Source of the DNA: Limisphaerales bacterium
GTDB lineage: Bacteria > Verrucomicrobiota > Verrucomicrobiia > Limisphaerales > UBA11358
NCBI GenBank assembly: GCA_037200545.1
Contig: JBBCGE010000004.1
Coordinates: forward strand, 310,970 to 374,969
Length of the DNA stretch: 64,000 nucleotides
Reading direction: 5' to 3'
Below, piece by piece: positions 2,880 through 39,885 of this stretch (position 1 is its first letter; every line of letters starts with the position of its first letter). Position numbers and translations under genes: made by a program. Below the pieces are notes generated by a model. The model worked only from the letters and a program-made list of their open reading frames with translations, ran no database searches and was not told where the DNA came from.

Positions 2880-4370
2880 TCACGTCCCGGCGTGTTGCAG
2901 CGCCTTGTGCAGACTCAACGTATTACCGTCATTCTTTTTCAGTTCGCAAAAAACACAAACGGAAACAATCGTCCAGACGCCAAGAATCAAGAACGTCAGA
3001 TGAATGCCGTGAATCATCTGTGGCGCGCTCGCCTGAAACCGGTCAGGAATAAAAAACGCCACAAACAATGACCCAATCGCGATGCCAAAGCTGACGGACA
3101 TTTGCTGCACCGTGCTAGTGATAGCGCTGGCCGCGCTGCTTTGTTCGTCCGTCACATCGGCATAGACCAATGTGTTCATGCTGGAATACTGGAGTGAGGT
3201 GAACATTCCAAAAATGAAAACCTGCGTGACGATGAGCCAGACTGGCGTGCCCGCGCCGATTGTCGCGAAGGAAAGGGTCATCACCCCGAGCATCAAGGTG
3301 TTGAAAATCAAAACGCGGCGGTAGCCAAAGCGTTGCAAAATTTTACGCAGCACGATTTTTAAACTCAAGGCGGCAGCAGCCTGCGGCATGATGAGCAGGC
3401 CGGATTGGATCGGCGTGAAGCCAAGACCGACCTGATACAACAACGGAAACAAGAAGGGAATTCCGCCAATCCCCAGCCGGGTGAAAAAGCTGCCACTCAC
3501 GGACGCGCGAAAAGTGCGGATGCCAAACAGCCCCAGCCGCAGCAGGGGGAACTTGATGCGCCTCGCCCGTATTCCATAAGCGACGAGACAAACGGCGGAA
3601 ATGGCCAGCAACGCCAGCAGCGTGGCATCGCCCAGGGTGTGGTCGCCAAAAACTTCCAGCACATACGCCAGCAACCCGAAGCCCAGGCCGAACAGGATCA
3701 ATCCCACAAGGTCGAGCGGAGGCGGATTCGGTTCCCGATAATCCGGCAGATGGCGGAGGACCAGATAAAGGCCGAGCAGCCCCACCGGCAGGTTGATGAA
3801 AAAAATCGTCCGCCAATGAAAATACCCGACAATGAAACCGCCGGCGACGGGGCCGAGCATGGGGCCGATCAAACCCGGAATGGCGACGAAGCTCATCGCA
3901 CGGATGAGTTCGGCTTTTGGAAATGTTCGCACCAGTGTCAATCGTCCCACCGGCACCATCATCGCGCCGCCGAAACCTTGCAGGACGCGGCACGCGACGA
4001 GCAGATGAATGTTATTCGAAAGGCCGCAGAGCAAGGAGCCTAAGGTGAACGTTCCGATGGCCCACGCAAAGACCCGGCGCGTGCCAAAGCGATCCGCCAT
4101 CCAGCCGCTGATGGGAATGAAGACCGCCAGGCTTAAAGTGTAGCTCGACAGCATTGCCTTCATGCTCAAGGGCGTGACGCCAAGCGCCTTCGCGATGGCG
4201 GGAACCGCCGTGTTCAAGATTGTCGTGTCCAGCGCCTGCATGAAGAAAGCCACCGCCACCAGCCACGGCAAAAAGCGTTTCACCGCTTCGATCGAGATTG
4301 CCGAAGGCACCACAACGGCTGCGGCATCGGTGGATGCGCCATTGACGGCCGACTCGAATTCTTTTGCCAT
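2880..4370 (-). CDS. DHA2-family MFS efflux transporter (EmrB/QacA, MdtD-like)
   Basis: LDTTILNTAVP and GWMADRFGTRR (MFS motif A); about 14 TM segments. Confidence 0.9.
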   Translation of the reverse strand: MAKEFESAVNGASTDAAAVVVPSAISIEAVKRFLPWLVAVAFFMQALDTTILNTAVPAIAKALGVTPLSMKAMLSSYTLSLAVFIPISGWMADRFGTRRVFAWAIGTFTLGSLLCGLSNNIHLLVACRVLQGFGGAMMVPVGRLTLVRTFPKAELIRAMSFVAIPGLIGPMLGPVAGGFIVGYFHWRTIFFINLPVGLLGLYLVLRHLPDYREPNPPPLDLVGLILFGLGFGLLAYVLEVFGDHTLGDATLLALLAISAVCLVAYGIRARRIKFPLLRLGLFGIRTFRASVSGSFFTRLGIGGIPFLFPLLYQVGLGFTPIQSGLLIMPQAAAALSLKIVLRKILQRFGYRRVLIFNTLMLGVMTLSFATIGAGTPVWLIVTQVFIFGMFTSLQYSSMNTLVYADVTDEQSSAASAITSTVQQMSVSFGIAIGSLFVAFFIPDRFQASAPQMIHGIHLTFLILGVWTIVSVCVFCELKKNDGNTLSLHKALQHAGT

Positions 4371-4480: not shown

Positions 4481-5860
4481 TTATGAATTCTCGATCCAAA
4501 CAGTTTGGGCATTCACAAACGCATGTGCCCCGAAATGAGAAAGCTCGCGGCCATATCCGCTGTTCTTGACCCCACCGATCGGTATCCGGGGATCCGACGC
4601 CGTAATGCCATTGATGAACACGCCGCCGGTATTTAAATCACGTGCAATCTTTCGGGCCAATGCCACGTCGCTGGTCCACAGGTTGCCGCTCAGCCCAAAC
4701 CGGCTTGCGTTCGCCGTCCTGACGGCCGCGTCAACATCGGGCACGCGGGTGATCGCTGCCACAGGACCGAAGGTCTCTTCATCGAATGCGGGCATGCCCT
4801 GGGTCACACCGCCCAGCACTGTGGCTGGATAGAATGATCCAACGCCGTTAGACGGTTTGCCTCCACATAGCAGACGCGCACCTTTTGCGATGCTGTCTTC
4901 AACTTGTTTGTGCAGAGAGTCGCGCAGGTCCATCCGCGCCAATGGTCCCATCTGTGTCGTTGGATCCATCGGGTCACCGACACTGATCGCCCTTGCCGCC
5001 TCCAAAAATAAATGCTCGAATTCATCGGCAATTTTCTCCACGAGAATGAACCGTTTGGCAGCCACACAGACCTGGCCTGCGTTGGCGAAGCGTCCCTTGA
5101 TGCCTGCCGCCACGGCCTTTGGAATGTCCGCATCTTCACAGACGATAAAGGCATCAGAACCGCCTAATTCCATGACGGTTTTCTTGATGACTTTCCCGGC
5201 CTCCGAAGCGACTGCAGAGCCTGCCCGCACGCTTCCGGTTACGGAAACCCCCTGGATACGCGAATCATTGATCACGTTGACAATCTCTTCCGTCTTGAGA
5301 ATCAGATTTTGAAACACACCTTCCGGAAACCCGGCTTCACATATTATTCGTTCAAACTCGAGTGAACTCCCCTGAGTATTGGGCGAGTGTTTTACGAGGA
5401 CAACATTACCTGCGAGCATTGTCGGCACAGCCATGCGAGCCAGCTGCCAGAGCGGGAAATTCCACGGCATGATGGCAAGAATCGGTCCGAGCGGCAGATA
5501 TGAAACATAGGCATCGACCCTGCCGGTTGGCGCAGGTGTATCTGCCAGCATCTGTGGTCCGTGCTCGGCATACCAATCCGCTTCCCGCGCGCACTTCTCC
5601 ACCTCGGCTTCAGCCTCCGGTAGAATTTTCCCCATCTCGCTGGTGATTGTTTTCGCGAGGTGTTCCTTATTTTTTCTTAATGTCTTGGCGAGATCCGAAA
5701 GGCTTTGCGCGCGCTGATGCACGGATAGTTTTCGATATGACCGGTAACTCAGTTCGGCTTGGGACAGCCTGGCTTCTATTTCTGCAGAATTAAAATATGA
5801 GAATGTTTCGACCTGCTGACCCGTCGCCGGATTTACCGTGGAAAAACTGGTCGCTTTCAT
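4481..5860 (-). CDS. NAD(P)-dependent aldehyde dehydrogenase (Sad/GabD-like)
   Basis: IMPWNFP, TGS, MELGGSD, NAGQVC, EETFGP, GVKNSGYGRE motifs; start taken at MKATSF. Confidence 0.9.
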   Translation of the reverse strand: MKATSFSTVNPATGQQVETFSYFNSAEIEARLSQAELSYRSYRKLSVHQRAQSLSDLAKTLRKNKEHLAKTITSEMGKILPEAEAEVEKCAREADWYAEHGPQMLADTPAPTGRVDAYVSYLPLGPILAIMPWNFPLWQLARMAVPTMLAGNVVLVKHSPNTQGSSLEFERIICEAGFPEGVFQNLILKTEEIVNVINDSRIQGVSVTGSVRAGSAVASEAGKVIKKTVMELGGSDAFIVCEDADIPKAVAAGIKGRFANAGQVCVAAKRFILVEKIADEFEHLFLEAARAISVGDPMDPTTQMGPLARMDLRDSLHKQVEDSIAKGARLLCGGKPSNGVGSFYPATVLGGVTQGMPAFDEETFGPVAAITRVPDVDAAVRTANASRFGLSGNLWTSDVALARKIARDLNTGGVFINGITASDPRIPIGGVKNSGYGRELSHFGAHAFVNAQTVWIENS

Positions 5861-33898: not shown

Positions 33899-34945
33899 TT
33901 AAGCCGCTACGGCGCTGGCAATCGGCACGATCACGCCAGCGGCGTTTGCTTCGGCCAATTTCTTTTCGTAGTCCTCAAGGGCGGGAATAAACACTTGGGC
34001 GTTTTTGGAATAGGCGCGGTGAATGGCGCGGCTGTTCTGGCCCAAGTTCTCCATTGCGAAGCGTTCCGGCATTCCTGCGCTCTTGGCGCGTTCCGCCCAA
34101 GCGTAACGGTAGCTGTGAAGCGTAATACCTTTAATCTTCAAGCGGCGGCAGGCGCGGGCAAATTCGGTTGCCCGGTGCGCCTCCCGCATGGGTTTCAGCT
34201 TTGGAAATAGCGGGCCGGTAACGGGCAGGGAGCGCAACACCTTCTCAAGTGCCTCCCCAATGCGGATGATGGAAGCGGAGCCGGTCTTGTGCCGGTGAAA
34301 GCTGACAACACGTGTGCGCCAGTCAATATCCTCGGCAGCAATCGCGGCCACGTCGGACTGTGCGCCGCCGATATGCCAGCAACATTCGTAAAACGCCCGG
34401 CGTTCCGCGTTCTGCTCGGCGGTGACAATCGCGTGATGTTCAGTCGGTGTGATGGCGCGTTTTTCCTTAAACCGGACTTTCGGCCATTGCTTCTTGGGCA
34501 GAATCGGCCAGTGAAGCCAGTTCATGTCTAGCGCGAAGTTGTGAATCCGGCGCAAGAAAACATTCGTTGCGACGGTGCCGATTTCCAAGACTTTCAGCAA
34601 GTGCATGGACTGCGTTTCCAGAATCGGCAGATTGCGGATGAGGTCAAAGGCCGGGTCTTTCATCGCGCGTTCGTGGCGGATGCGCGTCGAGCCGGCCTTG
34701 GTCTTGGTCATTTCATCCATCGGCGTCTGCCAAGTCCGCTTGGCGGTTTCCGGGTCGGTGGCCGTCAAATACGTTCGGGCAATCTGGCGGTTTAACACCG
34801 GCTGGCGAAAGGATTCGTTTTTGGCGTTTAGAAGCGTTACGGCTTCGCTTTCGTCTTTCGTCCGCAAGCTGTGCTGCTTGCGGGTCACGGTGTCCTCGCT
34901 GTAATAAACGCCCGCTCGCCGAAACATGATGAATCGAGGTTTCAT
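33899..34945 (-). CDS. Tyrosine recombinase/integrase (inner tRNA-Cys element)
   Basis: TLHSYRY...NLGQ...HRAY; 186 bp from the tRNA-Cys 3' end. Confidence 0.88.
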   Translation of the reverse strand: MKPRFIMFRRAGVYYSEDTVTRKQHSLRTKDESEAVTLLNAKNESFRQPVLNRQIARTYLTATDPETAKRTWQTPMDEMTKTKAGSTRIRHERAMKDPAFDLIRNLPILETQSMHLLKVLEIGTVATNVFLRRIHNFALDMNWLHWPILPKKQWPKVRFKEKRAITPTEHHAIVTAEQNAERRAFYECCWHIGGAQSDVAAIAAEDIDWRTRVVSFHRHKTGSASIIRIGEALEKVLRSLPVTGPLFPKLKPMREAHRATEFARACRRLKIKGITLHSYRYAWAERAKSAGMPERFAMENLGQNSRAIHRAYSKNAQVFIPALEDYEKKLAEANAAGVIVPIASAVAA

Positions 34946-35131: not shown

Positions 35132-35205
35132 TGGAGGCGAGGGTCGGAATCGAACCGACGATGCAGCTTTTGCAGAGCCGTGCCTTACCACTTGGCTACC
35201 CCGCC
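35132..35205 (-). tRNA. tRNA-Cys(GCA)
   Basis: GGCGGGGTAGCCAAGTGGTAAGGCACGGCTCT-GCA-AAAGCTGCATCGTCGGTTCGATTCCGACCCTCGCCTCCA; cloverleaf with encoded CCA. Confidence 0.97.
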
Positions 35206-36249: not shown

Positions 36250-37383
36250 TTATTTGGAATTAAATCCCAACTTCTCCCGTTGTTTCCAAAGTTCCTGCGG
36301 TTTGAAAATTCCCACGGGCGTGATGATGCCGGTGATCAATTCCGCCGGCGTCACGTCAAAGCTTGGATTGCGCGCGCCGCTCGTGGGATTCGCCACGCGA
36401 ACATATTCACGTTTTCTCATCTTCCATCTTCCTCCTTCCATCTGCTTCCCGGTCACACCCCACGCACCCAAAACCTCGCTCTCGCTTCGCTCTTCAATCG
36501 GGATGTCGAAGCCGCGTTTCAGATTCCAGTCAATCGTCGAGATCGGAATGGCGACATAGAAGGGAATTTTGTGGCGCGCAGCCAGAACGGCCTTGGTGTA
36601 GGTGCCGATCTTGTTGGCGACTTCGCCGGTGCGGCCGAGCGTGCGGTCGCTGCCGACGATGACCAGATCAATCTCGCCGCGCTGCATCAGATGGCCCGCG
36701 GCGTTGTCGGCGATGATCTGATGCGAAATGTTTTGCTGCGCCAGTTCCCACGCGGTGAGCGTCGCGCCCTGGGAACGCGGGCGGGTTTCATCGCAGAAGA
36801 CGTGGAATTTTTTGCCCTGCGCCTGCGCGACATACATCGGCGCGGTGGCGCTGCCGATGTCCACGAACGCCAGCCAGCCGGCATTGCAATGCGTGAGAAT
36901 CTTCATGCCGTTGCGGATCAGCTTCGCGCCGTGCCGGCCGATCTCCTCACAATGTTGCACGTTTTCGCGGGCAAATTCCTCGGCGGCGGCAAGCGCGAGG
37001 AACTGGCGTTCTGCCACTGTTTGTCCGGGAGTCATGTGATGGCGAATGTCATTCATCGCGTTGACGGGATCCACGGCGGTGGGCCGCGCATTTTTCAAAA
37101 CCTGATAAACCGTCTCGACGTGAGCGGAGAATTTCTTCAAATCGTTTCCACGAAAGGCGAACGCGCCTTGCGCCAAGCCGTAAGCGGCGGTGGCACCGAT
37201 GGCTCCGGCACCGCGCACGATCATGTCGGTGATGGCGGCGGCGGTTTCCCGGAAATTTTTGGTGGCGACGATTTTAAATTCGTGCGGGAGCAGCCGCTGT
37301 TCAATGAGCAAGACAGCGTTCTGCGTTCGGTCAAAGGTGACGGTGCGGTAATGCTGGGTGCGGCCCCGGACGGTGACGTTCAT
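36250..37383 (-). CDS. mtnA: S-methyl-5-thioribose-1-phosphate isomerase
   Basis: MIVRGAGAIG, RPTAV, THCNAG, DETRP..QG, NKIGTY, NPSFDVTP. Confidence 0.95.
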   Translation of the reverse strand: MNVTVRGRTQHYRTVTFDRTQNAVLLIEQRLLPHEFKIVATKNFRETAAAITDMIVRGAGAIGATAAYGLAQGAFAFRGNDLKKFSAHVETVYQVLKNARPTAVDPVNAMNDIRHHMTPGQTVAERQFLALAAAEEFARENVQHCEEIGRHGAKLIRNGMKILTHCNAGWLAFVDIGSATAPMYVAQAQGKKFHVFCDETRPRSQGATLTAWELAQQNISHQIIADNAAGHLMQRGEIDLVIVGSDRTLGRTGEVANKIGTYTKAVLAARHKIPFYVAIPISTIDWNLKRGFDIPIEERSESEVLGAWGVTGKQMEGGRWKMRKREYVRVANPTSGARNPSFDVTPAELITGIITPVGIFKPQELWKQREKLGFNSK

Positions 37384-37392
37384 ATATCAGGT

Positions 37393-37758
37393 TTATCCCA
37401 ACGGCAAAATACGGGCACGCGCCCGGGATTCATCAAGAACGATCAACGCGCCCTTTTCCAGTTCGGATTCAAATTGTCGGAGCGCACCAGCCACAAGTTT
37501 TCCAACGGCAACCGGCGTCACATCCTGGGTGCGGATTTGAATCACACTTGGCCCTTCCGCCTGCGATAATGCCAGCATGGAGCCGAAATCCAGATCATGC
37601 GTGAAGACGACATGGCCGTTCTGCCTTGCCCAAGCCATGATTTCGGAATCGGCGGCGCGATGGTTACCGACCTTTGACCAGTGAACCGCCTCCCAGCCCG
37701 CCTGTTTGAGAACCGCCACCCATTCAGGTGAAAGATTCATGTCCACCAGCAGCTTCAT
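37393..37758 (-). CDS. DUF5615 PIN-like (VapC45-type) toxin
   Basis: MKLLVDMNLS, D.EI..WA, THDLDFG. Confidence 0.88.
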   Translation of the reverse strand: MKLLVDMNLSPEWVAVLKQAGWEAVHWSKVGNHRAADSEIMAWARQNGHVVFTHDLDFGSMLALSQAEGPSVIQIRTQDVTPVAVGKLVAGALRQFESELEKGALIVLDESRARARILPLG

Positions 37759-37985
37759 GCTGGCTGGAGCGGCATTTCAATCTCTTCCGCCCGCCACGCG
37801 GCATACTTCAACGCCTGGGTGATGTCCTCCGCTTCAAGATATGGATACAACTTCAAAATTTCCGCAACCGCATGGCCGCTGGCGACCAATCCGGTGATGG
37901 TGCCCGCCGTGACGCGCAACCCGCGGATGCAGGCCCGCCCGCCCATGACGTTCGGGTTGAAAGTAATTCGATCCAGCGCTTTCAT
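37755..37985 (-). CDS. DUF433 antitoxin
   Basis: RITFNPNVMGGRACIRGLRV...YPYLEAEDI.QAL.YAA. Confidence 0.9.
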   Translation of the reverse strand: MKALDRITFNPNVMGGRACIRGLRVTAGTITGLVASGHAVAEILKLYPYLEAEDITQALKYAAWRAEEIEMPLQPA

Positions 37986-38039
37986 GGCCGCAAGATAACA
38001 CAGCCCAATCCTGACCGGCAAGTTGTGAAACACTGAATG

Positions 38040-38107
38040 GCGTTCGGCGCGCGGTCAAAAGTGAAGGTGCAGAAAGCTAGGTGCGGCCCCGGACGGTGAC
38101 GTTCATA
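38040..38107 (-). pseudogene. Relic duplicate of the mtnA 5' end
   Basis: Imperfect copy of 37316-37384 with a 28-bp identical core (38080-38107 = 37357-37384). Confidence 0.85.
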
Positions 38108-38513
38108 AATCAACTAACGTCCCAACGCGTTCTTTTCTTGGAAATAAAAAACTTCCAATCAGTGCGCGCCATTTTCTTTTTGAAAGCGAATCCATCACGT
38201 CATTCATAACGTGCAAACACCTCACACCATTTTGTTCCGCTAGTTTCCATTTGCGTCTGTCGTTCAAACTCTGCTTCTCGTCAAAATGATGCGCGCCACC
38301 CGGCTCAATTATCGCTACGGGCTTGTTGCCCCGAAAAACAACTAAATCAGCAGAGCCGTAACGCCAAATATGTTTGAGTCCACTGTTCTCCGGTTCATTG
38401 AAGACTTGTTTCAGCGGAACTTCCAATTTAACACAGAAGAGGCGCGACCACTTTTGCTCAATGTAAGCTTTGATGGTCTCCGCCTCTTCTGTGACTTTCA
38501 AATCATCTAACAT
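38103..38513 (-). CDS. PD-(D/E)XK / Vsr-DUF2726-like nuclease-fold protein
   Basis: EVPL..V...ADLVV...VAIIEPGG.HH...ND..K...GV..L.V pattern; ATG directly after the terminator U-tract. Confidence 0.7.
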   Translation of the reverse strand: MLDDLKVTEEAETIKAYIEQKWSRLFCVKLEVPLKQVFNEPENSGLKHIWRYGSADLVVFRGNKPVAIIEPGGAHHFDEKQSLNDRRKWKLAEQNGVRCLHVMNDVMDSLSKRKWRALIGSFLFPRKERVGTLVDL

Positions 38514-38540
38514 AAAAAACAGCGGGTCATTGCCCGCTGT
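38514..38540 (-). terminator. Intrinsic terminator closing the pentamer array
   Basis: Minus strand ACAGCGGG-caatga-CCCGCTGT followed by a T run. Confidence 0.8.
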
Positions 38541-38613
38541 GCCTGACCGCACCAAGCCTAACCATGCCACACCCTACCTCACCGAACCGAACCCAACCGA
38601 ACCACGCCCCACC
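38539..38613 (-). ncRNA. Putative guide RNA: array of 15 GGY-NN pentamers (VIPR-like)
   Basis: Plus-strand RCC at every fifth base from 38541 to 38611 with no exception; NN variable; starts 9 nt after the RAMP-like stop codon and ends in a terminator. Confidence 0.8.
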
Positions 38614-38622
38614 ATAAATTAT

Positions 38623-39144
38623 TTAAGCAAAGTTGTGAACTTCAAATCTTCCAAACTTGGGACGGTAATCTCCAATTCCTTTACTTTTTCCTGCCTCTTC
38701 CAAAATTTGCTTCAGTGTCTCTTTCTTTATCCGCGTTTCGTCAAAGTTGACGGTAAACTCAATCTCCCACTTGTTAAAACGCGGTCTGGATTTGACAATG
38801 CGCTGGCGTTGAATGACAGCGGGGCGGCGGTCAATTTCGTCGTATGTCTTTTTGCCCATAGGAATCTCTTCTGGCTCAACAAAAACAGATGAAAGAATCG
38901 TCGCCTTCAAACTAGCCTTACCTTTACCTTTGAATTCTTTAGCCGTTTCACGCAAGGTCGCCTCAATCCAACTGGAAGGAACAAAACAACCTTGGTCATT
39001 TCGATACACCGCCTTTTCAGCATCCTCCTTCGAGTCAAATTTTTGATCTCGTCGTTTGGCTTTTTCCTCATCTTCCTGCTCCATTGGAAAACGGTTGTGA
39101 AGCAAAGGAGCAACGCCATGAATTTTTACTTCAACGCTTTGCAT
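38623..39144 (-). CDS. Stand-alone Cas7/RAMP-like protein (Vipr-like)
   Basis: N-terminal strand V.I.G..PLL, helix motif VPSSWIEATL, R..RP thumb, C-terminal glycine-rich loop GIGDYRPKFGRF. Confidence 0.75.
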   Translation of the reverse strand: MQSVEVKIHGVAPLLHNRFPMEQEDEEKAKRRDQKFDSKEDAEKAVYRNDQGCFVPSSWIEATLRETAKEFKGKGKASLKATILSSVFVEPEEIPMGKKTYDEIDRRPAVIQRQRIVKSRPRFNKWEIEFTVNFDETRIKKETLKQILEEAGKSKGIGDYRPKFGRFEVHNFA

Positions 39145-39149
39145 ATCGA

Positions 39150-39416
39150 TTAAGCATCTACACAAATTTCTTCATTAAGCAACCACTCCGGGGCTTTCCA
39201 ATTAGATGGCCTCTGATCGTCGAACATCAACTGAATAAATTGTAGCGCAGCTTGGTAGGCAGATAGAACTTCTGGGATTTTCGGCGCGACCTCGTATGCG
39301 TGGCGCAGTTTTTCCATAGCCCACGCCATTCCCTGTCCGGGCGTGCAATTCCATTTACTGTAACGAACAATCACAGCGGTTTGAATGTATTGAATGAACT
39401 CGGATTGCTTATCCAT
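39150..39416 (-). CDS. Hypothetical 88-aa protein, first gene of the AT-rich cassette
   Basis: Ends 5 nt before the RAMP-like ATG; AT-rich upstream region. Confidence 0.6.
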   Translation of the reverse strand: MDKQSEFIQYIQTAVIVRYSKWNCTPGQGMAWAMEKLRHAYEVAPKIPEVLSAYQAALQFIQLMFDDQRPSNWKAPEWLLNEEICVDA

Positions 39417-39468
39417 AATGCTATTAAGATTATTTTAGTATTTTGTCATCGTTGAACCAAATCGTTGT

Positions 39469-39885
39469 TCAACCAGCCTTTTTCTTCAGCCGTTGAATCT
39501 TTTCCTTGAGAGCTTTGTAGGCGGGCTGGGCGCGGAGTTTTTTCAGATCGGGATCCTTGGCGAGCCAGGCGAAATCGCGATAGCCGAGGCTCAACGCCTT
39601 TTCCAGGGCCGCCACGGCGCGGTCGAACTGGCCGGTGAGCGAGTAGCTGCACGCGAGATTGTAAAAGACGAGCGAGTTCTGCGGTTCGAGACTCGCGAGG
39701 CGTTCGTCCACCTGCAGGCCCTCCGGGAAACGACCGCGCTGCGTGTAGTCATCGCCGAGCAACTGGAGCGCGTCCACGTAGTCGGGGTCGCGGCGGACGA
39801 TGCCCTCCATGAACTCGATCCGCGTATCGAGGTCACGCTGGAGAGCGCGGCTCATCTTTTTTCGGGCGGTGCTTTTTACCGGCAT
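39469..39885 (-). CDS. TPR-repeat protein
   Basis: YNLACSYSL...A...L..A...GY.D......DPDL..LR. Confidence 0.85.
   Translation of the reverse strand: MPVKSTARKKMSRALQRDLDTRIEFMEGIVRRDPDYVDALQLLGDDYTQRGRFPEGLQVDERLASLEPQNSLVFYNLACSYSLTGQFDRAVAALEKALSLGYRDFAWLAKDPDLKKLRAQPAYKALKEKIQRLKKKAG

Follow-up and report, generated by a model that had tools for sequence, protein, structure and literature searches.

A probable nuclease-coupled VIPR system on a strain-specific island of a Limisphaerales bacterium

A 1.35-kb island in the chromosome of a Limisphaerales bacterium probably encodes a nuclease-coupled VIPR system that acts as an anti-phage module. The island lies in a stretch of 64,000 nt, hereafter the window, taken from the assembly GCA_037200545.1 (contig JBBCGE010000004.1, positions 310,970 to 374,969, forward strand). 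We are highly confident in the identity of the locus, i.e., that it is VIPR, that the accessory nuclease is dedicated to it, and that the neighboring 88-aa ORF is not a partner. Whether the system acts by cutting DNA under the direction of the guide is a more delicate matter, on which we regard the chances as about even.

VIPR is a CRISPR-like RNA-guided system described in 2026 (bioRxiv 10.64898/2026.04.26.720920). According to this preprint, its protein, Vipr, is a small Cas7-like member of the RAMPs that has a single RRM and a glycine-rich loop, and its guide, the vrRNA, consists of about 9-16 tandem pentamers, in which GGY is fixed and NN is variable, followed by a structured 3' tail. The only activity shown experimentally is silencing, by type II, which uses no nuclease. 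Types III and V have predicted nucleases, a location in defence islands, and targets in IMG/VR. Target destruction is proposed for the nuclease-bearing types, which are predictions so far, with small-RNA sequencing behind them (bioRxiv 10.64898/2026.04.26.720920).

Organization of the island

An earlier note on this DNA, made from the sequence alone, had described three co-oriented AT-rich ORFs between positions 38103 and 39416 of the window. We recovered all three on the minus strand, in a region (38000-39400) whose GC content is 0.435-0.485 vs 0.55-0.64 in the flanks. The features of the region, in window coordinates, are as follows:

38107..39457, no strand: strain-specific 1.35-kb island enclosing the 88-aa ORF, vipr, the vrRNA, and the nuclease gene
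39150..39416, minus strand: 88-aa ORF (reads 39416..39150), member of a small-protein family and apparent passenger of the strain-specific island
38623..39144, minus strand: vipr, 173 aa (ATG at 39144, end at 38623), predicted single-domain Cas7/RAMP fold
38611..38645, minus strand: two overlapping sigma-70-like promoter matches in the last vipr codons, just upstream of the array (weak evidence)
38541..38615, minus strand: vrRNA guide region of 15 tandem NNGGY pentamers, whose 15 variable dinucleotides would be the target code
38514..38540, minus strand: vrRNA 3' tail, with an 8-bp hairpin (38540..38519) and a U-tract (38518..38514)
38103..38513, minus strand: vap-type accessory gene, 136 aa (ATG at 38513), Vsr-like PD-(D/E)xK fold, predicted DNA-cutting effector

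The junctions between these elements are tight, as the earlier note had claimed. The TAA of the 88-aa ORF is followed after 5 nt by the ATG of vipr, and the ATG of the nuclease gene abuts the tail hairpin and the five further T, i.e., it stands right after the terminator-like U-tract. A 155-aa form of the nuclease ORF starting at a GTG was rejected as probably an artefact of the gene caller, because most homologs begin at or near M1 of the shorter form and the added part overlaps with the guide RNA.

The island has a gene encoding a TPR protein on one side and a DUF433/DUF5615 toxin-antitoxin-like pair on the other. In the nearest relative (genome G003, 90-93% identity), the homology breaks off at window position 38106 and picks up at 39458, and a different insert occupies the site. 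Elsewhere in the genus, several genomes have the flanks of the island only about 80-150 nt apart. We counted the location of a strain-specific insert beside a toxin-antitoxin-like pair as context for the anti-phage reading.

The Vipr protein and its guide RNA

Vipr matches the profile phrog_4652 (E 4.3e-28) and has a conserved glycine-rich motif at its C-terminus. Its structural model (pLDDT 83) has 42 matching PDB chains at E<=0.001 and, among the matches listed, nearly all are Csm3/Cas7 subunits; chains of this type are also the best ones, with 6xn3_F at the top (E 5.6e-5). A tblastn search of the genome of phage SUSP1 with Vipr gave a match at NC_028808.2 28501-29061, with 29.3% identity over 98% of the query (E 8e-14). 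The gene at this position is followed by a 146-aa gene, and long intergenic regions flank the pair, which matches the description given in the preprint, and we infer that it is the SUSP1 vipr. By analogy with the SUSP1 structures, the protein of the window would be a guide-RNA-binding filament subunit. The contig scan, when queried with a single protein, returned only 2 loci; an alignment is a better choice of query.

The array of the locus is the only run of at least 9 NNGGY units on either strand of the 3.75-Mb assembly, and shuffles of 334,128 nt of related loci produced no such array. Of 85 loci, 69 have an NNGGY array on the same strand as vipr and none has one on the opposite strand, and between relatives the NN differ while the GGY are kept. 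Some loci of the clade have 2-3 tandem vrRNAs; the window and many relatives have a single one. Tandem Repeats Finder (TRF) reported only the 5-nt period in the region, CRISPR-type repeats (24-48 nt) were absent from 37200-39600, and a Pfam scan of 6 ORFs of the region gave no match to a Cas family.

A hairpin at the end of the array was found in 42 of the 48 distinct arrays of the clade. Compensatory changes affect 6 of the 8 pairs in 30 aligned tails, and none of 500 shuffles scored as high. The aligned tails were chosen for the 8 pairs, such that their 100% pairing is by construction, and 12 of the 42 hairpins were excluded from the alignment for a shifted register or probably spurious stems. 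The hairpin thus seems to be first of all a conserved 3' handle of the guide RNA, which is also shaped as an intrinsic terminator. Together, the Cas7 fold, the homology with SUSP1, the pentamer array unique in the genome, and the conserved covarying tail argue for the identification of the locus as VIPR.

The expression signals are less clear-cut. The two promoter-like matches (TTGAAG-16-AATAAT and TTCACA-17-TATGGT, 9/12 each) are possibly the vrRNA's own promoter; the region has 3 such sites vs 1.4 +/- 1.2 in shuffles, a number that is not significant alone. Contigs of two metatranscriptome runs of the same sample cover parts of the locus, a presence that is not proof of transcription, and none of the RNA contigs of the two libraries bridges the tail hairpin. 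The vrRNA region matched no Rfam family, and 15 related loci had no hammerhead or other family at the gathering score. Folding of the whole vrRNA was no better than that of shuffles (z -0.34). Such an unremarkable fold is compatible with a protein-bound guide, and proves nothing.

A natural target in phage capsid genes

We searched viral contigs for targets with the rule given in the preprint, in which each NN pairs and one target base is skipped between successive NN. Patterns of 12 units with this 1-nt skip matched 2 and 7 viral loci, on 7 different contigs altogether. With all 15 units, 30 of 30 positions are matched in 2 viral contigs and 29 of 30 in 5. The controls (reversed unit order, 0-nt skip, and 2-nt skip) gave 0 matches each, and the best match in the bacterium's own genome (20/30) is at background level. 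The seven sites all lie in the same ORF and code for one and the same peptide. The 44-bp target stretch encodes WANYITLSDEHETP, residues 14-27 of the ORF in contig L101; at codons 14-28 of the capsid ORF, it is near the 5' end. The target ORFs that were scanned (2 of the 7) match SU10_MCP (E 5e-37 and 8.5e-28) and the major head protein phrog_1328, which makes them major capsid genes of the SU10 type, from uncultured phages.

The skipped bases coincide with the wobble positions of codons. Across the 5 distinct target sites, 8 of the 14 skip positions vary vs 1 of the 30 NN positions. The target set displays the logic of wobble skipping on real data: the differences between phage variants fall on the skipped bases, and the bases that are read are kept. 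These sequence matches support a natural phage target of the guide, located in a capsid gene.

The place of the target near the 5' end of the capsid ORF would also suit a road-block. Hence, the system might only silence the capsid gene, with the nuclease being either a target-activated non-specific toxin (abortive infection) or inactive. Silencing is, after all, the VIPR activity for which the preprint gives experimental proof, and since type II silences without a nuclease, silencing alone could suffice at the locus of the window. Moreover, a ribosome-binding site for the nuclease ORF could be accommodated only within the hairpin. However, the candidate catalytic residues of the nuclease are invariant in 27 homologs (see below), which argues for an active enzyme, and we consider the silencing-only explanation unlikely.

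The accessory nuclease

The earlier note had proposed that the 136-aa protein is a nuclease of the Vsr/DUF559/DUF2726 type, and structural comparisons agree with this for the fold. Its model (pLDDT 86) was aligned with VIA-align to 48,161 chains, of which just 6 reach Z>=8. Vsr comes first (1cw0_A, Z 9.9, 105 aligned residues, rmsd 3.5), and the DUF559-type 3hrl_A, the homing endonuclease I-Bth0305I (3r3p_B), and the RAP-domain chain 9g6k_LJ all have Z 9.2; FASTKD4 (9gek_A) has Z 7.9. Foldseek gave weaker matches (BstEII, E 6.7e-3; TnsA, E 1e-2), none at E<=0.001. At the sequence level, there was no match in PADLOC or NCBIfam, and a profile search of solved structures found nothing. DUF2726 (PF10881) matches 19 of 27 homologs at E<=0.1 (best 1.3e-5). 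Since the protein of the window scores 16.3 bits, under the Pfam cut-off of 24.7, and its homologs match, we call it a relative of DUF2726 and not a member. Judging from the model, the protein has a Vsr-like PD-(D/E)xK fold.

The motif pointed out in the earlier note is real. Ten residues are invariant in the 27 aligned homologs: D56, E70, G72, G73, H76, Q81, N84, D85, R87, and K88. In the model, D56, E70, H76, Q81, D85, and K88 map to strands 2-3 and the next helix and are candidates for the active site. Strand 2 has an acidic residue, and strand 3 and the stretch after it have a Glu-Gly-Gly...His, which would correspond to the motif of the Vsr/DUF559/DUF2726 families. The invariance of these candidate catalytic residues suggests that the enzyme is active.

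RAP-domain proteins of organelle RNA metabolism are among the best structural matches, which raises the question of whether the protein matures or trims the vrRNA, as Cas6 does. Loci with 2-3 tandem vrRNAs would indeed need processing. Yet, the window and many relatives have only one vrRNA, bounded by a promoter-like site and a terminator-like tail, for which no cutting would be needed, and type II VIPR makes its vrRNAs without such a protein (bioRxiv 10.64898/2026.04.26.720920). Furthermore, other VIPR clades have HNH-like or DUF559 genes in place of this one, as detailed in the next section. HNH and DUF559 families are known mainly as DNases, which also speaks against trimming. A Cas6-like role seems to us highly improbable.

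A conserved partner of vipr

The earlier note had proposed co-occurrence with the RAMP-like family in other genomes as a check, and the nuclease does co-occur with it. A nuclease homolog adjoins vipr in 34 of 84 related loci, 26 times downstream and 8 times immediately upstream. The association is tighter among close relatives: 34 of the 36 loci with Vipr of at least 53% identity have the homolog, and of the two exceptions, one is on a contig that ends 69 nt past vipr (L006) and the other has only a partial vipr match (L068). Searches started from the nuclease gave the same picture, as 3 of the 3 real extra matches have vipr alongside. In a sample of the phylum, only 2 of 401 genomes have the nuclease, and both copies adjoin vipr.

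The two genes also evolve together. The nuclease accompanies vipr over the whole range of 43% to 88% Vipr identity. The identities of the two proteins are correlated (Spearman 0.77, n=31, with related rows that are not independent). The partner label can be mapped on a 72-row Vipr tree with only 2 changes vs about 22 in shuffles, and Viprs partnered with the PD-(D/E)xK protein cluster apart from those partnered with an HNH-like one. The placement of the nuclease gene, directly after the guide tail or overlapping the start of vipr, is fixed within sub-clades. The nuclease gene is a conserved, co-diverging partner of its Vipr clade.

Other, more distant Vipr clades have an HNH-like gene in the same place (33 of 84 loci), and in locus L083 a DUF559 gene (E 9.9e-14) takes the place of the nuclease. 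The label "HNH" relies on a Cys/His motif seen by eye: 4 scanned members had no Pfam match, 18 had no NCBIfam nuclease match, and the best PDB profile match is the McrA HNH motif, at E 0.083. The swapping of partners between Vsr-like, HNH-like, and DUF559 genes fits an effector role. Together, the nuclease fold and the conserved partnership with vipr and the array point to an effector-coupled RNA-guided module.

The surroundings of the VIPR relatives themselves, both chromosomal and phage, are unrelated.

In phages, small HNH and Vsr-like genes typically act as free-standing homing endonucleases, and one may wonder if the nuclease is of this selfish kind, a homing or mobility endonuclease by which a small cassette spreads, and not an RNA-guided effector. 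The likeness to I-Bth0305I (Z 9.2), the small size of the island and its variable site, the diversity of contexts of the relatives, and the substitution by HNH-like and DUF559 genes in other clades are all in line with this idea. It is at odds with the persistence of the nuclease next to vipr over 43%-88% Vipr identity, with divergence in step, with the two genomes out of 401 that have the nuclease having it only beside vipr, and with the fixed position within sub-clades. We find this explanation quite unlikely.

The 88-aa ORF

The 88-aa ORF belongs to a family of 81-91-aa proteins, with 3 homolog clusters; a search of 1.84 billion representatives yielded 8 small relatives at E<1e-3. It has no family match in Pfam, PADLOC, PHROGs, or NCBIfam, and no relative among the viral contigs. 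Look-alikes of the protein in the ESM Atlas were at chance level only (0.84), and were discarded.

The earlier note had proposed that this protein is a small subunit or regulator. A lineage-specific third component, e.g., a regulator or an adaptor of the nuclease, would account for a real conserved small protein being encoded within the 1.35-kb island, co-oriented with vipr and with a stop 5 nt before its ATG. This gap suggests co-translation, so a local role may be envisaged. However, none of the 84 related VIPR loci has the ORF, and 67 of these loci have at least 300 nt upstream of vipr, including 6 of the 11 with Vipr of at least 80% identity. The ORF has 4 homologs in other genomes, and neither Vipr nor the nuclease nor an array lies within 1.5 kb of them; no gene cluster upstream of vipr is common to 3 or more loci. 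A third component is thus very unlikely, and the genomic distribution indicates that the ORF is a passenger of the inserted segment and not a regular VIPR component. Hence, the compact three-protein RNA-guided module of the earlier note keeps its effector-coupled and RNA-guided character, but the conserved module consists of two proteins and one RNA.

Proposed mechanism and implications

By analogy with the published SUSP1 structures, Vipr protomers would coat the vrRNA and form a filament that finds phage DNA. The small nuclease would then nick or cut the bound or distorted target. As the nuclease ORF begins right after the tail hairpin and the U-tract, it may be translated only from transcripts that read through the hairpin, which would keep the nuclease low relative to Vipr and the vrRNA. 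More tentatively, the Vsr-like protein could represent an uncharacterised class of VIPR accessory proteins that binds to the assembled Vipr-vrRNA-DNA complex and introduces a nick or a cut into the target, with its expression throttled by read-through of the tail hairpin. If this is true, the locus encodes a PAM-free RNA-guided DNA-cutting module of 173 + 136 residues with a guide of about 100 nt.

The locus is a clean natural test case: it has a single guide, a single Vipr, and a single, very small nuclease, a phage capsid gene provides a natural target with a perfect match, and there are relatives without the island. Should the nuclease be directed by the guide, few programmable DNA-cutting systems would be smaller than this pair, and the idea that a viral silencing device became host immunity by gaining a nuclease would be supported.

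Comparison with known systems

The RAMP fold of the RNA-binding subunit and the periodic guide with unpaired bases are shared with the Cas7/Csm3 filaments of class 1 CRISPR-Cas systems. The pairing of a guide-loaded filament with a separate nuclease such as Cas3 is a likeness by analogy only. The locus of the window differs in having neither a CRISPR array nor a Cas-family Pfam match (6 ORFs), and in its 5-nt period, in which 2 of 5 bases are informative, and its single-domain subunit. The nuclease resembles the Vsr/DUF559/DUF2726 branch in its fold (Vsr, Z 9.9; 3hrl_A, Z 9.2), but it is dedicated to a VIPR locus instead of mismatch repair or restriction.

The type II system of the Escherichia phage SUSP1 (Vipr, vap1, and four vrRNAs) has a homologous Vipr (29.3% identity), a two-gene core, vrRNAs in the flanking intergenic DNA, and the same pentamer code and skip rule. 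It differs in belonging to a lytic phage, where the system silences a satellite, and in its 146-aa partner, a predicted DNA-binding protein (bioRxiv 10.64898/2026.04.26.720920). The wV8 equivalent of this partner has no similarity to the nuclease of the window. The tails differ as well: that of SUSP1 is a pseudoknot in the preprint, whereas that of the window is a simple 8-bp hairpin.

The closest likeness is with types III and V, with which the locus shares a Cas7-like Vipr, a tailed vrRNA of the GGY/NN type, an accessory gene next to vipr that encodes a nuclease, a defence-type setting in the chromosome, one or few vrRNAs, and matches to viral contigs (IMG/VR) under the 1-nt-skip rule. One difference is that the nuclease domain named in the preprint is HNH (legend of Fig. 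S21), whereas the one found here is a Vsr-like PD-(D/E)xK. The VIPR types were defined on the Vipr tree and loci of the authors of the preprint, and since nuclease-bearing types are already described there (bioRxiv 10.64898/2026.04.26.720920), we regard the locus of the window as a further member of nuclease-bearing VIPR.

Layout and identity of the locus

The island carries three co-oriented ORFs on the minus strand, and on re-reading the sequence we found all coordinates and layout details given for them in the earlier note to be correct.

Features of the island
39416..39150, minus strand: 88-aa ORF, from ORF reading
39144..38623, minus strand: 173-aa ORF (vipr), starting 5 nt past the stop of the 88-aa ORF
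38615..38541, minus strand: array of 15 tandem NNGGY pentamers, between vipr and the 136-aa ORF
38540..38519, minus strand: 8-bp hairpin at the array end, followed by five more T
38513..38103, minus strand: 136-aa ORF (nuclease fold), with its ATG directly after the U-tract

The array, the hairpin and the five T make up the 109 nt that separate the 173-aa and 136-aa ORFs. The GC content of the three-ORF patch is 0.435-0.485, against 0.55-0.64 in the flanks. A whole-assembly scan showed that this array is the sole run of at least nine NNGGY units in the 3.75-Mb assembly, and shuffled DNA of related loci contained no arrays of this kind.

The 173-aa protein matches phrog_4652 (E 4.3e-28) and no family in a Pfam scan; the closest folds to its model (pLDDT 83) are the Csm3/Cas7 subunits of type III and VII CRISPR complexes. 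It is homologous to a gene of SUSP1, the Escherichia phage with the experimentally characterised type II VIPR (29.3% identity over 98% of the window protein's length, E 8e-14). The SUSP1 gene is one of two genes in a locus flanked by long intergenic stretches, in agreement with the description in the parts covered of bioRxiv 10.64898/2026.04.26.720920, and given its homology and locus layout it is taken to be the SUSP1 vipr. These parts of the preprint describe Vipr as a small ancestral RAMP protein, vrRNAs as having 9-16 YNNGG repeats and, at the 3' end, a conserved tail, loci that include an accessory gene, vap, and a DNA recognition that reads the NN pairs alone, passing over one target base between pairs. 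Further preprints, likewise covered in part, are 10.64898/2026.04.26.720927, 10.64898/2026.10.15.759431 and 10.64898/2026.10.21.760802.

A strict NNGGY array is missing from 16 of 85 collected loci (L035, L058 and L077 among them). In several of these, vipr is followed by tracts of 5-nt period whose fixed triplet is a different one (e.g. xGT/TGT or AGT, not GGY); the tracts resemble the non-canonical repeats mentioned in the covered part of bioRxiv 10.64898/2026.10.21.760802. In phage wV8, two 58-nt repeats named DR_4 (3759-3816 and 5152-5209) bracket the vipr/vap pair; the first is 18 nt ahead of a GGY/NN array (3834-3888), and the second overlaps another array at its end (5104-5153). Both are plain repeats in the 2008 annotation and may represent conserved flanks or tails of vrRNAs. 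At window position 38861, inside vipr, one contig of a DNA run that is a possible source of the window DNA is one base short. The loss is not seen in the RNA-library contig and could be a frameshift variant or a low-depth assembly error.

The nuclease and its association with vipr

The earlier note had suggested a Vsr/DUF559/DUF2726-type nuclease for the 136-aa ORF, which proved right at the level of the fold. When its model (pLDDT 86) was compared to 48,161 chains, just 6 reached Z 8 or more, the closest being the Vsr endonuclease 1cw0_A (Z 9.9 over 105 aligned residues), the DUF559-type protein 3hrl_A (Z 9.2) and the homing endonuclease I-Bth0305I 3r3p_B (Z 9.2). Foldseek gave weak matches. 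DUF2726 is detected at E<=0.1 in 19 of 27 homologs, the window's protein itself falling below the Pfam cut-off. The residues invariant in the homologs (D56, E70, G72, G73, H76, Q81, N84, D85, R87 and K88) map in the model to strands 2-3 and the following helix.

We collected 84 loci with relatives of the 173-aa protein (80 metagenomic, 2 genomic, 2 phage). The predicted co-occurrence of nuclease and vipr was borne out: a nuclease homolog adjoins vipr in 34 of the 84, either downstream past the vrRNA as in the window (26 loci) or immediately upstream, overlapping the vipr start (8 loci). At Vipr identities of at least 53% the nuclease is present in 34/36 loci, and the two exceptions are a contig that ends 69 nt past vipr (L006) and a partial vipr match only (L068). 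Searching from the nuclease side, real matches were found in 2 viral contigs and, out of 401 genomes from the phylum, in 1 additional one, with vipr adjacent in all three. Nuclease and Vipr identities are correlated (Spearman 0.77, n=31, the rows being related), and in a maximum-likelihood phylogeny of 72 Viprs 2 changes suffice to account for the partner label, against about 22 in shuffles.

The sister clade has a Cys- and His-rich gene of about 90 aa in the nuclease's place (33/84 loci), which we label HNH-like from its motif. One locus has a DUF559 gene as partner (E 9.9e-14), and 17/84 loci, several of them short contigs, have neither partner. Read from sequence, the pattern is that of one RNA-binding core with exchangeable small nucleases. 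Such exchangeable partners are reported in words for types III-V in bioRxiv 10.64898/2026.04.26.720920, where HNH is the only nuclease domain named in the text and legends covered. Loci of the window type are chromosomal, with AbiEii, PIN, Schlafen/PLD or IS200-like genes often nearby; those with the nuclease upstream have phage-like surroundings that include RecA, ligase, primase-helicase and Mom. Two loci have a partner of a third kind, an ORF of about 148 aa located after the arrays (L082:4722-5168, L071:1479-1757). It had no match in a Pfam scan, and its D...E.K-like pattern, noted by eye, suggests that it may be another nuclease class.

The guide tail

A perfect 8-bp hairpin follows 42 of 48 distinct array ends in the window's clade, in most cases beginning exactly at the array end. 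We aligned the 30 hairpins that share a common register, leaving out 12, and found changes on both sides in 6 of the 8 pairs (32 cells). None of 500 shuffles scored as high, and in slid controls no more than 2 pairs were of this kind. Since the tails were picked for pairing, these compensatory changes are the sole counting evidence; with 6/8 pairs compensated, the hairpin is therefore a conserved guide-RNA handle.

The window hairpin is also shaped as an intrinsic terminator, and two promoter-like sites lie just ahead of the array, their number not being significant. Two metatranscriptome libraries, probably from the sample of the window DNA, hold contigs of the locus, which are no proof of transcription; none of their RNA contigs spans the hairpin. 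In the clade with the HNH-like partner, some arrays (loci L054, L061 and L063; downstream of vipr, between arrays) have a post-array hairpin with a loop like a tRNA T-loop (GGTTCAAATCC). Rfam at gathering score found no tRNA, hammerhead or other family in these hairpins.

A phage target for the guide

We searched IMG/VR with the 15 NN pairs, one base skipped between them, using 12-unit sub-patterns whose 24 fixed bases had to match exactly. Units 1-12 matched 2 loci and units 4-15 matched 7, in 7 contigs in total; with all 15 units, 2 contigs match at 30/30 positions and the other 5 at 29/30. Controls in which the unit order was reversed, no base was skipped or 2 nt were skipped each gave 0 matches in IMG/VR, and the window's own genome reaches no more than 20/30, which belongs to the background tail.

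The 7 sites share one ORF and one encoded peptide, W-A-N-Y-I-T-L-S-D-E-H-E-T-P, which in target contig L101 occupies residues 14-27. The two target ORFs scanned are SU10-type major capsid proteins (PF17236, E 5e-37 and 8.5e-28) and match phrog_1328. The guide has the antisense-strand sequence, and all skipped bases are third codon positions. Across 5 distinct target sites, 8/14 skipped positions vary and 1/30 read positions does, which fits the wobble-proofing argued in the Discussion of bioRxiv 10.64898/2026.04.26.720920. The parts covered of this preprint also report IMG/VR matches for 44/63 type III and 23/39 type V guides.

The 88-aa gene

The 88-aa protein belongs to a real family with 3 close clusters, and a search of 1.84 billion representatives gave 8 small relatives at E<1e-3. 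An alignment of 11 members shows K3, F7, A40, I47, P48, A56, A57, F60, W78 and L79 to be invariant. The earlier note had proposed it as a third, co-occurring component, a role that its distribution does not support. By tblastn and family HMM, no homolog was found in other VIPR loci, 67/84 of which have at least 300 nt upstream of vipr, and no upstream gene cluster is common to 3 or more VIPR loci. Homologs occur in 4 other genomes of the phylum sample, with no Vipr, nuclease, HNH-like gene or array within 1.5 kb. The 88-aa gene is not a VIPR gene; as it lies inside the inserted segment, a local role is possible but unlikely.

The insertion site

The flanks of G003, the nearest relative genome used for comparison, are 90-93% identical to the window; homology ends at 38106 and resumes at 39458, with a different insert between the two points. 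The VIPR insertion site is thus a hot spot for small insertions, since G003 has another insert at the very same site. This insert (about 1460-3050 of L094, the G003 region C17:320600-324600) includes a 98-aa ORF, and part of the TPR gene's 3' end is present in it as a second copy. The TPR gene and the end of the methylthioribose-1-phosphate-isomerase-like gene are about 80-150 nt apart in several other genomes of the genus, with neither the VIPR island nor the toxin-antitoxin-like pair at the site.

That pair (DUF433 and DUF5615/PIN-like, 37393-38033) stands beside the island, between two copies of a direct repeat (about 73 nt, 81-93% identity; 37316-37389 and 38040-38112). On the left, the isomerase-like gene has its 5' end within the repeat; on the right, the repeat borders on the final codons of the nuclease ORF. 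It looks like a target duplication produced when the toxin-antitoxin-like cassette inserted. A tRNA gene (35135-35205, minus strand, 64 bits), some 3 kb away from the island, adjoins a 348-aa ORF (33899-34945) that by eye looks like a phage-type integrase, and the two may mark the edge of another integrated element.

Proposed mechanism and comparison with known systems

The locus has the parts described, conserved together, and its guide has a natural phage target. The idea of an effector-coupled RNA-guided module thus stands for vipr, nuclease and array, as a module of two proteins rather than the three first proposed. On the model of the published SUSP1 filament, Vipr would coat the vrRNA, the complex would bind the phage capsid gene, and the Vsr-like enzyme would cut or nick there. 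Because its ORF begins right past the tail hairpin, the nuclease would be translatable from read-through transcripts alone, and so be scarce. Nuclease-bearing VIPR variants are already described in the covered parts of the 2026 preprints, and the window locus is of the same kind.
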